DNA of 64,000 nt from Escherichia coli (GTDB lineage: Bacteria; Pseudomonadota; Gammaproteobacteria; Enterobacterales; Enterobacteriaceae): assembly GCF_036507355.1 (NCBI RefSeq), contig NZ_AP027877.1. The stretch is one strand, 5' to 3'. Below the pieces are notes generated by a model that searched no databases, was not told the origin of the DNA, and saw only the letters and a program-made list of their open reading frames with translations. Positions within the stretch are counted from its first letter, which is position 1; every line of letters begins with the position of its first letter. Made by a program: the position numbers and the translations under genes. This document shows positions 43,342-45,647 of this stretch, piece after piece.

Positions 43342-43365
43342 TCGTCACGTCAAAACTGACGACAG
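43342..43365. promoter_or_regulatory. Putative FhlA upstream activating sequence of fdhF
   Basis: Inverted repeat tcgtcacgtcaaaactgacgacag about 70-90 bp upstream of the sigma54 promoter; FhlA dependence of fdhF is established knowledge. Confidence 0.45.
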
Positions 43366-43432
43366 CCTGTTTTTCGTCAGAGTTTTGAATAAATAGTGCC
43401 CGTAATATCAGGGAATGACCCCAAATAAAATG

Positions 43433-43448
43433 TGGCATAAAAGATGCA
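43433..43448 (+). promoter_or_regulatory. Sigma54 (-24/-12) promoter of fdhF
   Basis: TGGCAT-aaaag-ATGCA matches the TGGCAC-N5-TTGCA consensus, about 50 bp upstream of the fdhF start. Confidence 0.7.
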
Positions 43449-43499
43449 TACTGTAGTCGAGAGCGCGTATGCGTGATTTGATTAACTGGAGCGAGACCG

Positions 43500-45647
43500 A
43501 TGAAAAAAGTCGTCACGGTTTGCCCCTATTGCGCATCAGGTTGCAAAATCAACCTGGTCGTCGATAACGGCAAAATCGTCCGGGCGGAGGCAGCGCAGGG
43601 GAAAACCAACCAGGGTACCCTGTGTCTGAAGGGTTATTATGGCTGGGATTTCATTAACGATACCCAGATCCTGACCCCGCGCCTGAAAACCCCCATGATC
43701 CGTCGCCAGCGTGGCGGCAAACTCGAACCTGTTTCCTGGGATGAGGCACTGAATTACGTTGCCGAGCGCCTGAGCGCCATCAAAGAGAAGTACGGTCCGG
43801 ATGCCATCCAGACGACCGGCTCCTCGCGTGGTACGGGTAACGAAACCAACTATGTAATGCAAAAATTTGCGCGCGCCGTTATTGGTACCAATAACGTTGA
43901 CTGCTGCGCTCGTGTCTGACACGGCCCATCGGTTGCAGGTCTGCACCAATCGGTCGGTAATGGCGCAATGAGCAATGCTATTAACGAAATTGATAATACA
44001 GATTTAGTGTTCGTTTTCGGGTACAACCCGGCGGATTCCCACCCAATCGTAGCGAATCACGTAATTAACGCTAAACGTAACGGGGCGAAAATTATCGTCT
44101 GCGATCCGCGCAAAATTGAAACCGCGCGCATTGCTGACATGCACATTGCACTGAAAAACGGCTCGAACATCGCGCTGTTGAATGCGATGGGCCATGTCAT
44201 TATTGAAGAAAATCTGTACGACAAAGCGTTCGTCGCTTCACGTACAGAAGGCTTTGAAGAGTATCGTAAAATCGTTGAAGGCTACACGCCGGAGTCGGTT
44301 GAAGATATCACCGGCGTCAGCGCCAGTGAGATTCGTCAGGCGGCGCGGATGTATGCCCAGGCGAAAAGCGCCGCCATCCTGTGGGGCATGGGTGTAACCC
44401 AGTTCTACCAGGGCGTGGAAACCGTGCGTTCTCTGACCAGCCTCGCGATGCTGACCGGTAACCTCGGTAAGCCGCATGCGGGTGTAAACCCGGTTCGTGG
44501 TCAGAACAACGTGCAGGGTGCCTGCGATATGGGCGCGCTGCCGGATACGTATCCGGGATACCAGTACGTAAAAGATCCGGCTAACCGCGAGAAATTCGCC
44601 AAAGCCTGGGGCGTGGAAAGCCTGCCTGCTCATACCGGTTATCGCATCAGCGAGCTGCCGCACCGTGCAGCGCATGGCGAAGTGCGTGCCGCGTACATTA
44701 TGGGCGAAGATCCGCTGCAAACTGACGCGGAGCTGTCGGCAGTACGTAAAGCCTTTGAAGATCTGGAACTGGTTATCGTTCAGGACATCTTTATGACCAA
44801 AACCGCGTCGGCGGCGGATGTTATTTTACCGTCAACGTCGTGGGGCGAGCATGAAGGCGTGTTTACTGCGGCTGACCGTGGCTTCCAGCGTTTCTTCAAA
44901 GCAGTTGAACCGAAATGGGATCTGAAAACGGACTGGCAAATCATCAGTGAAATCGCCACCCGTATGGGTTATCCGATGCACTACAACAACACCCAGGAGA
45001 TCTGGGATGAGTTGCGTCATCTGTGCCCGGATTTCTACGGTGCGACTTACGAGAAAATGGGCGAACTGGGCTTCATTCAGTGGCCTTGCCGCGATACTTC
45101 AGATGCCGATCAGGGGACTTCTTATCTGTTTAAAGAGAAGTTTGATACCCCGAACGGTCTGGCGCAGTTCTTCACCTGCGACTGGGTAGCGCCAATCGAC
45201 AAACTCACCGACGAGTACCCGATGGTACTGTCAACGGTGCGTGAAGTTGGTCACTACTCTTGCCGTTCGATGACCGGTAACTGTGCGGCACTGGCGGCGC
45301 TGGCTGATGAACCTGGCTACGCACAAATCAATACCGAAGACGCCAAACGTCTGGGTATTGAAGATGAGGCATTGGTTTGGGTGCACTCGCGTAAAGGCAA
45401 AATTATCACCCGTGCGCAGGTCAGCGATCGTCCGAACAAAGGGGCGATTTACATGACCTACCAGTGGTGGATTGGTGCCTGTAACGAGCTGGTTACCGAA
45501 AACTTAAGCCCGATTACGAAAACGCCGGAATACAAATACTGCGCCGTGCGCGTCGAGCCGATCGCCGATCAGCGCGCCGCCGAGCAGTACGTGATTGACG
45601 AGTACAACAAGTTGAAAACTCGCCTGCGCGAAGCGGCACTGGCGTAA
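43500..45647 (+). CDS. fdhF: Formate dehydrogenase H (selenocysteine-containing molybdoenzyme)
   Basis: Two ORF-track pieces (43500..43919 and 43968..45647) are a single frame joined through the in-frame TGA at 43917..43919 (codon 140); 715 aa; N-terminal Fe-S Cys cluster. Confidence 0.95.
43917..43965 (+). other. UGA selenocysteine codon plus SECIS stem-loop
   Basis: In-frame TGA followed by cacggcccatcggttgcaggtctgcaccaatcggtcgg, which can form the SelB-binding hairpin. Confidence 0.8.

Follow-up and report, generated by a model that had tools for sequence, protein, structure and literature searches.

How should one read a locus in which two open reading frames follow each other in the same frame, separated by a TGA and preceded by what resembles a sigma-54 promoter and an inverted repeat? 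In the window, by which we mean the whole 64,000-nucleotide stretch of Escherichia coli DNA analysed here, mechanical ORF calling yields 43500..43919 (139 aa, ending at the TGA) and 43968..45647 (559 aa, with an internal ATG as its start). A sequence-only reading of the locus had described this split, which the ORF list bears out, and had proposed that the pieces are one gene, fdhF, with a TGA recoded as selenocysteine and with expression under FhlA and sigma-54 control. The features that define the gene are the following.

43500..45647, + strand: fdhF coding sequence, 715 codons and TAA, formate dehydrogenase H (translation, protein identity, NCBIfam match)
43488..43491, + strand: Shine-Dalgarno GGAG, 8 nt before the ATG, read from the sequence
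43917..43919, + strand: UGA codon 140, the selenocysteine position, aligned with X140 of the solved chain 1aa6_A

Several observations identify the gene. First, one-frame translation of 43500-45647 gives 715 codons in which the TGA at 43917-43919 is the sole internal stop, and the frame continues past it as had been proposed. Second, reading through the TGA gives a protein that matches the solved FDH-H chains (PDB 1aa6, 1fdi, 1fdo, 2iv2, and 7z0t) at 100% identity across 715 residues; the TGA falls exactly on X140 with everything downstream in frame, which is the alignment that the sequence-only reading had called for. Third, the product scores 1089 bits over residues 6-685 against the NCBIfam equivalog TIGR01591 (Fdh-alpha), whose cut-off is 666.25. 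Fourth, the same DNA is annotated as fdhF, between mdtP and yjcO, in 5419 of 5426 complete E. coli genomes. We consider it almost certain that the locus represents the fdhF transcription unit as it occurs on an Escherichia coli-type chromosome, functioning as described for E. coli K-12. The gene, its promoter, its activator site, and the UGA with its hairpin are all long known, and nothing in the observation is new. As a classic failure of naive ORF calling, due to a UGA being recoded as selenocysteine, fdhF has value here as a control only, and the result touches no open biological question. For annotation, the consequence is that 43500..45647 needs to be entered as a single gene whose codon 140 carries a translation exception.

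The comparison with K-12 fdhF (b4079; PDB 1AA6/1FDO/2IV2) is particularly close. The two proteins agree at all 715 residues, the Sec140 position among them, and the neighbours are shared (mdtP upstream; yjcO and then gltP downstream). Across 43150-45720 there are 24 SNPs relative to K-12, of which 16 lie within the coding sequence. None of these 16 can change a residue, given that the encoded protein equals the solved FDH-H chain, so all must be synonymous; this pattern indicates purifying selection rather than decay. The core of the upstream activating sequence (UAS), the -24/-12 element, and the SECIS do not differ between the two strains, and the two SNPs in the control region (43321, in the loop of the mdtP hairpin, and 43424, between the UAS and the -24) leave the conserved elements untouched.

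Which signals direct the expression of this gene? The promoter and the start that it implies are placed as follows.

43433..43448, + strand: sigma-54 promoter TGGCAT-N5-ATGCA, TGGCATAAAAGATGCA, with GG at 43434-35 (-24) and GC at 43446-47 (-12)
43459, + strand: inferred transcription start, from sigma-54 geometry, about 12 nt after the GC of the -12, which leaves about 41 nt of 5' leader

A site was accepted as a sigma-54 promoter if a GG and a GC doublet, spaced by exactly 10 nt, stood in a TGGCAC-N5-TTGCW-like context upstream of a gene, and this is the arrangement of TGGCATAAAAGATGCA (TGGCAT-AAAAG-ATGCA), which lies 67 nt before the ATG, has one mismatch to the consensus, and scores 13.4 bits against a sigma-54 matrix. 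Its -14 position is A (ATGCA), where the consensus TTGCA has T. The element had been described as visible in the sequence. It is indeed present and conserved, but its motif alone is at chance: at one mismatch, 6 occurrences are observed in the window against 6.2 expected, i.e., without enrichment, and the matrix ranks the fdhF site 4 in the 64 kb. The promoter is taken as real because of its position, its conservation among orthologues, and its identity to a site mapped by ChIP-seq. Of 78 orthologues, 68 have a similar -24/-12 element no more than 150 nt from their ATG, and TGGCATAAAAGATGCA matches exactly the motif GTGGCATAAAAGATGCA of the published sigma-54 ChIP-seq site OS41, assigned to fdhF in E. 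coli K-12. The table of that study gives a "distance 41" for fdhF, which is consistent with a start at 43459. The Salmonella fdhF site TGGCATAAAACATGCATA has been reported as bound and sigma-54-dependent. On the + strand, the region upstream of fdhF yielded no sigma-70-like site.

Upstream of the promoter lies the inverted repeat, together with a second conserved block.

43342..43362, + strand: UAS core TCGTCACGTCAAAACTGACGA, at about -117 to -97, a palindrome conserved among orthologues
43366..43380, + strand: second conserved block CCTGTTTTTCGTCAG, holding a third CGTCA (43375-79), 58 nt upstream of TGGCA

The repeat stands where it had been proposed, with outer arms TCGTCA (43342-47) and TGACGA (43357-62) and an inner CGTCA-N4-TGACG (43348-43361) placed 85 nt upstream of the TGGCA of the promoter, inside the range of about 70-150 nt in which a conserved FhlA-dependent palindrome was sought. 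The exact palindrome pattern CGTCANNNNTGACG occurs once in the 64-kb window (0.08 expected), and GTCA/TGAC tetramers are dense around it, with 5 in 61 nt against 0.5 expected. The palindrome is kept in 64 of the 68 promoter-bearing loci, in 54 of these at 85-86 nt from TGGCA, and its arms are nearly invariant in the orthologue alignment, where the 4-nt spacer is variable. Of the 64 loci, 54 have a TTCGTCA downstream of the palindrome, most often 58 nt from TGGCA, as in the window. A repeat finder also returned a perfect 8-nt inverted pair, TCAAAACT (43350-57) and AGTTTTGA (43381-88), which is probably not a functional unit, its left arm falling within the variable spacer of the orthologues.

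Published work is the basis on which FhlA, rather than another enhancer-binding protein, is taken as the user of the UAS: studies of E. coli, Salmonella, and Proteus all place fdhF under activation by FhlA. The K-12 promoters of hyc, hyp, hydN-hypF, and hyf, whose dependence on formate and FhlA is known from the literature, likewise combine a sigma-54 -24/-12 element with GTC/GAC-rich repeats about 100 nt upstream; the fdhF site has the form CGTCA-N4-TGACG (GTC-N6-GAC), whereas the units in the hyc-hyp region are of the type TGTC-N5-GACA. Against a published FhlA matrix the UAS scores 8.1 of 17.1 bits, which makes it the best intergenic match and the 107th in the window, for a matrix that is built on 13 sites and discriminates little. 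A full-text literature search for the UAS string GTCAAAACTGAC returned unrelated primer sequences only. The proposed control by FhlA and sigma-54 is supported, with the promoter identical to a ChIP-seq site, the palindrome conserved, and the literature in agreement.

In a rival explanation, the upstream repeats are termination or RNA elements of mdtNOP instead of an fdhF enhancer, or the enhancer is used by an activator other than FhlA, such as its paralogue HyfR. In its favour are the weak FhlA matrix match, the assignment of the binding protein from published work and not from computation, and a terminator-like hairpin immediately upstream that overlaps one conserved GTCAC. Yet in 56 loci without mdtP upstream the palindrome and its flanking blocks still keep a fixed distance to the -24/-12 element, and constant arms around a varying spacer speak for a palindrome bound by protein and against an RNA stem. 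Since the literature also assigns fdhF to FhlA in all three genera, we regard both versions of this explanation as very improbable and retain the palindrome as an fdhF enhancer used by FhlA.

The overlap with the hairpin nevertheless bears on how far the activator site extends.

43309..43334, + strand: terminator-like hairpin after mdtP, followed by TTTCGTTTCG (terminator scan; inverted repeat CCGCGTGA/TCACGCGG)
43324..43328, + strand: distal GTCAC, candidate extra half-site at about -135, in the right arm of the mdtP hairpin and outside the coordinates of the sequence-only reading

The stop codon of mdtP ends at 43302. The distal GTCAC is a conserved column of the orthologue alignment, and 52 of 64 loci have a GTCAY 13-30 nt ahead of the palindrome block, among them 44 of the 56 without mdtP upstream. 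Between enhancer and promoter there is a further conserved block, CGTAATATCAG, at 43402-43412. One might speculate from these alignments, though we think it unlikely to hold in full, that the activator site spans about 57 bp and five GTCA/TGAC units, from GTCAC at 43324-28 to CGTCAG at 43375-80, with its distal unit inside the terminator arm of mdtP, and that CGTAATATCAG is an undescribed protein-binding or bending site. If the extended site were true, a single DNA segment would terminate the RNA of the operon before it and also belong to the enhancer of fdhF. Older footprinting papers may already cover either point. An IHF site in the block at 43402-43412 is unsupported, the pattern WATCAR-N4-TKR fitting 3 of 68 loci.

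What, then, happens at codon 140? The RNA element that could recode it has two nested parts.

43912..43966, + strand: SECIS element, 55 nt, in-frame and including the UGA, matched by the full Rfam SECIS_2 model
43931..43947, + strand: apical 17-nt hairpin, predicted SelB-binding part, GGUUGCAGGUCUGCACC, from folding

Codon 140 is TGA in 77 of 78 Enterobacterales orthologues and TGT (Cys) in the remaining one, and Sec140 is the molybdenum ligand in the solved FDH-H. The stem-loop that the sequence-only reading placed after the TGA does form when 43917..43965 is folded, at -14.9 kcal/mol, but this is an ordinary energy: 54 of 200 shuffles of the 49 nt fold as well (z = -0.49), and the 17-mer hairpin is not unusual either (z = -0.67). 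The capacity to form a stem-loop is thus, in energy alone, within chance; the covariance-model match is what decides for the element. Rfam SECIS_2 (RF01988, the enterobacterial fdhF-type model) gives 87.1 bits at 43912-43966 (E = 8.5e-19) against a gathering score of 70, over the full model length 1-55, with all consensus positions matched except two compatible pair positions. The clostridial/deltaproteobacterial model SECIS_3 gives 35.8 bits against a cut-off of 63. The geometry also agrees: the published minimal SECIS has 17 nt (positions 15-31), located 11 nt from the UGA, with U17, G23, and U24 (PMC8659212), and here 11 nt separate the UGA from the apical hairpin, whose stem has one bulged U (43933 or 43934) and whose GGUC loop places G23/U24 at 43939-40.

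Conservation among orthologues adds a second line of evidence. Across 26 distinct orthologue sequences 96% of the cells are paired, against 20-47% in slid-register controls; the orthologues do not keep two of the Rfam SECIS_2 pairs (columns 8-47 and 17-39). Covariation between pairs was not significant among 32 orthologue sequences, with 84 of 500 shuffles doing as well as the real data. The test is uninformative here, since the majority of pairs are invariant and the encoded protein restricts the element too. We therefore used synonymous codons in its place. The codons of S144, V145, A146, G147, L148, H149, and S151 (codons 144-149 and 151) do not vary at all among the 78 orthologues, whereas the mean identical-codon fraction over the first 300 codons is 0.64, and the most conserved 13-codon window of these 300 starts at codon 140. 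Within the SECIS, synonymous change is free at only two sites, the third positions of the P143 and Q150 codons, and these fall on the two weakest or wobble-tolerant pairs. The frozen synonymous codons at 144-149 and 151 reveal a constraint at the RNA level beyond the protein code.

Taken with the Sec140 alignment and the SECIS_2 score above the curated Rfam threshold, the comparison of sequences supports the decoding of UGA 140 as selenocysteine in this gene, as had been claimed. The chance that the TGA is instead a true nonsense mutation, leaving in this strain a split pseudogene from which only the 139-residue fragment is made, is negligible: mechanical ORF calling does split the gene, the hairpin energy is not special, and release factor 2 (RF2) termination competes at this codon in vivo, with a recoding efficiency reported at about 30-40% (PMC4513850), but the TGA recurs across dozens of genera, the 575 downstream codons remain uninterrupted and encode the sequence of the solved enzyme with only synonymous differences from K-12, and the SECIS lies above the Rfam threshold.

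With codon 140 read as selenocysteine, the locus can be followed from promoter to product, and for FhlA binding, SelB binding, the transcription start, and the chemistry we follow the literature. Sigma-54 RNA polymerase would wait as a closed complex on TGGCAT-N5-ATGCA at 43433-43448, until formate-responsive FhlA binds a GTCA/TGAC-rich site about 80-135 nt upstream of the start. This site would correspond to the core at 43342-43362 and the second block at 43366-43380, probably with GTCAC at 43324-28. FhlA would then reach the polymerase by DNA looping, and ATP hydrolysis would open the promoter, with transcription starting near 43459. Translation would begin at the ATG at 43500, and the mRNA past the UGA at 43917-19 would fold as the SECIS hairpin, whose apical stem-loop (43931-43947) is expected to bind SelB-GTP-Sec-tRNA(Sec). 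The SelB complex would bring selenocysteine to the A site in competition with RF2, and the ribosome would melt the hairpin and read it as codons 141-157. The predicted product is FDH-H, a molybdo-selenoenzyme of 715 residues with Sec140 on the molybdenum. None of the tests run gave evidence that contradicts this explanation of fdhF. The genes fhlA, rpoN, and selABCD do not occur within the 64-kb window.

The 3' end of the transcription unit is marked by one further feature.

45661..45692, + strand: fdhF intrinsic terminator, ACAGCCTCCTTTCGGAGGCTGT followed by TTTTTTT (terminator scan)

A weak Rfam match to Atu_Ti3 at 45651-45686 (18.8 bits against a cut-off of 50, E = 1.4) was rejected, as it corresponds to the hairpin of this terminator.

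The three features described for fdhF by the sequence-only reading, namely a sigma-54 promoter, an upstream inverted repeat and a recoded UGA, were confirmed, its interpretation is supported, and every aspect of the feature was known before. The elements of the locus are as follows.

43309-43334: terminator-like hairpin after mdtP, the gene upstream of fdhF; the GTCAC at 43324-43328 lies inside its right arm
43342-43347 and 43357-43362: TCGTCA and TGACGA, the arms of the upstream inverted repeat, with the inner palindrome CGTCA-AAAC-TGACG
43402-43412: CGTAATATCAG, between the enhancer and the -24 element
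43433-43448: TGGCATAAAAGATGCA, the -24/-12 element, 67 nt before the fdhF ATG
43500-45647, + strand: fdhF, formate dehydrogenase H (FDH-H), 715 codons in one frame
43917-43919: TGA, codon 140, sole internal stop on translation
43931-43947: apical hairpin GGUUGCAGGUCUGCACC of the SECIS, starting 11 nt after the UGA

The mechanical ORF list contains the split that had been described, 43500..43919 (139 aa) and 43968..45647 (559 aa) in the same frame. Read through with X at codon 140, the protein is 100% identical (715/715 residues) to solved FDH-H (1aa6, 1fdi, 1fdo, 2iv2, 7z0t), and the fdhF product scores 1089 bits against NCBIfam TIGR01591 (formate dehydrogenase subunit alpha, equivalog; cut-off 666). 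Of 5426 complete E. coli genomes, 5419 match a 2.5-kb locus query (95-99.7% identity), and all of these carry the annotation fdhF with mdtP as flank; annotated neighbourhoods, K-12 MG1655 included, have the order mdtO-mdtP-fdhF-yjcO-gltP-nrfG. Relative to K-12 there are 24 SNPs across 43150-45720, all of them outside the SECIS, the palindrome and the -24/-12 element; the 16 within the coding sequence must all be synonymous because the protein is unchanged, which argues for purifying selection on fdhF and against a pseudogene.

Selenocysteine insertion at this TGA is supported in several ways. First, the Rfam model SECIS_2 (RF01988) matches end to end at 43912-43966, with 87.1 bits (gathering score 70, E = 8.5e-19). 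Second, one scan of 100,044 species genomes gave 80 orthologous loci (Escherichia, Salmonella, Citrobacter, Klebsiella, Enterobacter, Kosakonia, Serratia, Arsenophonus and others), and among the 78 with a complete 5' end codon 140 is TGA in 77 and TGT in one. Third, the TGA pairs with X (selenocysteine 140) of the deposited FDH-H chain, and the downstream region is in frame. The sequence after the TGA had also been called capable of forming a stem-loop: it does fold (49 nt, -14.9 kcal/mol), but with an energy that is ordinary relative to shuffles (z = -0.49), and the same holds for the apical 17-mer (-4.2 kcal/mol, z = -0.67 versus shuffles). The SECIS would not have emerged from thermodynamics alone. 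On the Rfam structure, standard pairs fill 96% of cells, against 20-47% with a slid register; pair covariation in the orthologues is not significant (84/500 shuffles) because most pairs never vary, and two outer pairs, at columns 8-47 and 17-39, are not maintained. The informative test was synonymous-site freezing, measured over the first 300 codons as the fraction of orthologues with the exact codon of E. coli. This fraction has a mean of 0.64 and reaches 0.89 at codons 141-153, the top 13-codon window starting at codon 140. S144, V145, A146, G147, L148, H149 and S151 have the same codon in 78/78 orthologues, though each is 2- to 6-fold degenerate. These frozen codons form the apical hairpin, whose bulged U and loop G and U (positions 23 and 24, numbering from the U of UGA) are exactly those that PMC8659212 gives in its summary of the minimal E. 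coli SECIS. An uncultured Enterobacteriaceae MAG carries a homologue with TGT (Cys) at codon 140 (L067:2913-2967) along with a selenocysteine copy (L078); the apical hairpin sequence of the former is intact despite the TGT, which fits a recent Sec-to-Cys switch or a protein-level constraint.

The claimed -24/-12 element is present, though as a bare pattern it stands at chance level (6 matches with one mismatch in the window, 6.2 expected), and a sigma-54 matrix built from 186 sites ranks it fourth in the window (13.4 bits). We nevertheless regard the promoter as real because its sequence is that of the motif GTGGCATAAAAGATGCA beneath sigma-54 ChIP-seq peak OS41 of E. coli K-12, assigned to fdhF and flagged as a previously confirmed promoter (PMC4591121); because its Salmonella counterpart TGGCATAAAACATGCATA is sigma-54-bound, with fdhF 29-fold sigma-54-dependent and FhlA the listed activator (PMC3844500); and because 68/78 orthologous loci have TGGYAH-N6-KGCA no more than 150 nt from the ATG, with drift in its N5 spacer. 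A search of the + strand upstream of fdhF found no sigma-70-like promoter. Promoter geometry would place the transcription start near 43459, with a leader of ~41 nt, in agreement with the distance of 41 listed for fdhF in the ChIP-seq table (PMC4591121). Higher matrix scores occur at 41745-41760 (-), antisense at the mdtO/mdtP junction, 52023-52038 (+) and 50808-50823 (-), with 15.0, 14.1 and 13.6 bits; intragenic sigma-54 sites are common in E. coli (PMC4591121).

The inverted repeat is likewise where it had been placed, and in 64 kb there is a single occurrence of its exact pattern CGTCANNNNTGACG (0.08 expected). When 28 promoter regions are aligned on the -24 element, the most conserved non-coding block is TCGWCACGTCA-NNNN-TGACGA, with invariant arms and a free 4-nt spacer, followed by a second block, CCTGTTTTTCGTCAG. 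The palindrome is present in 64 of 68 promoter-bearing loci, 85-86 nt from TGGCA in 54 (85 in the window), and TTCGTCA follows it in 54 loci, with a modal distance of 58 nt from TGGCA, that of the window. GTCA/TGAC units number five within 61 nt (0.5 expected). A GTCAY lies 13-30 nt upstream of the palindrome block in 52/64 loci; since it is kept in 44/56 loci without mdtP upstream, it is more than a part of the mdtP terminator, and the enhancer probably extends to the overlapping GTCAC. This extension and the moderately conserved block CGTAATATCAG, whose GTAWNMT core lies 31-33 nt upstream of TGGCA in 35/68 orthologous loci, are our only, small, additions. The latter block does not fit the IHF consensus. 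A perfect 8-nt inverted repeat from the repeat finder, TCAAAACT/AGTTTTGA, is probably incidental, its left arm being unconserved in orthologues.

Control by FhlA and sigma-54 had been proposed together. ChIP-seq identity and conservation bear out the sigma-54 part, whereas FhlA as the activator of fdhF comes from the literature: with a published 14-position FhlA matrix (PMC7658346), the best intergenic match, CGTCAAAACTGACG, is weak, reaching 8.1 of 17.1 bits and 107th place in the window. Comparable repeats rich in GTC/GAC also precede the -24/-12 elements in the control regions of hyc-hyp, hyf and hydN in K-12, but their spacing differs. For this gene, what FhlA, SelB and RF2 do is established knowledge: formate-activated FhlA at the enhancer would remodel the sigma-54 closed complex via ATP hydrolysis, giving a monocistronic mRNA predicted to run from ~43459 to the terminator at 45661-45692, and SelB-GTP-Sec-tRNA(Sec), anchored on the apical hairpin, would compete with RF2 at UGA140, the hairpin then being read as codons 141-157. 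PMC4513850 reports a recoding efficiency of ~30-40%.

Klebsiella, Raoultella, Serratia, Cedecea and others have second fdhF copies (loci L046, L049, L059, L066, L070, L071, L073 and L082) that keep the TGA and SECIS but have neither a -24/-12 element nor a palindrome of their own. Each follows, after 54-247 nt, an ORF of ~500 aa on the same strand whose C-terminus is conserved (…RTVRMWLL.RKV…), so that co-transcription in an operon is probable.

Further features lie elsewhere in the window. An IS600 (IS3 family; 1264 bp, 37952-39215) disrupts mdtN, first gene of the mdtNOP operon upstream of fdhF; its orfA/orfB are on the - strand, its terminal inverted repeats are imperfect and 27 nt long, and it is flanked by a target duplication of 3 bp. 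This element is typical of Shigella and of certain E. coli lineages. Relative to K-12, ~6.8 kb (K-12 4306823-4313661) are absent at 34570-34777, comprising alsK, alsE, alsC, alsA, alsB, alsR and the 5' part of rpiB, and ~208 bp at the junction do not align to K-12. Intergenic repeats are single-copy at 22391-22494 (~100 nt) and 46432-46580 (~113 nt), whereas K-12 carries tandem copies, ~5 between yjdN and yjdM and ~4 between yjcO and gltP, respectively. The phn (phosphonate) operon region (22487-34026) is 96.2% identical to K-12, against ~98-98.8% in its flanks, which suggests a recombined or more divergent segment.
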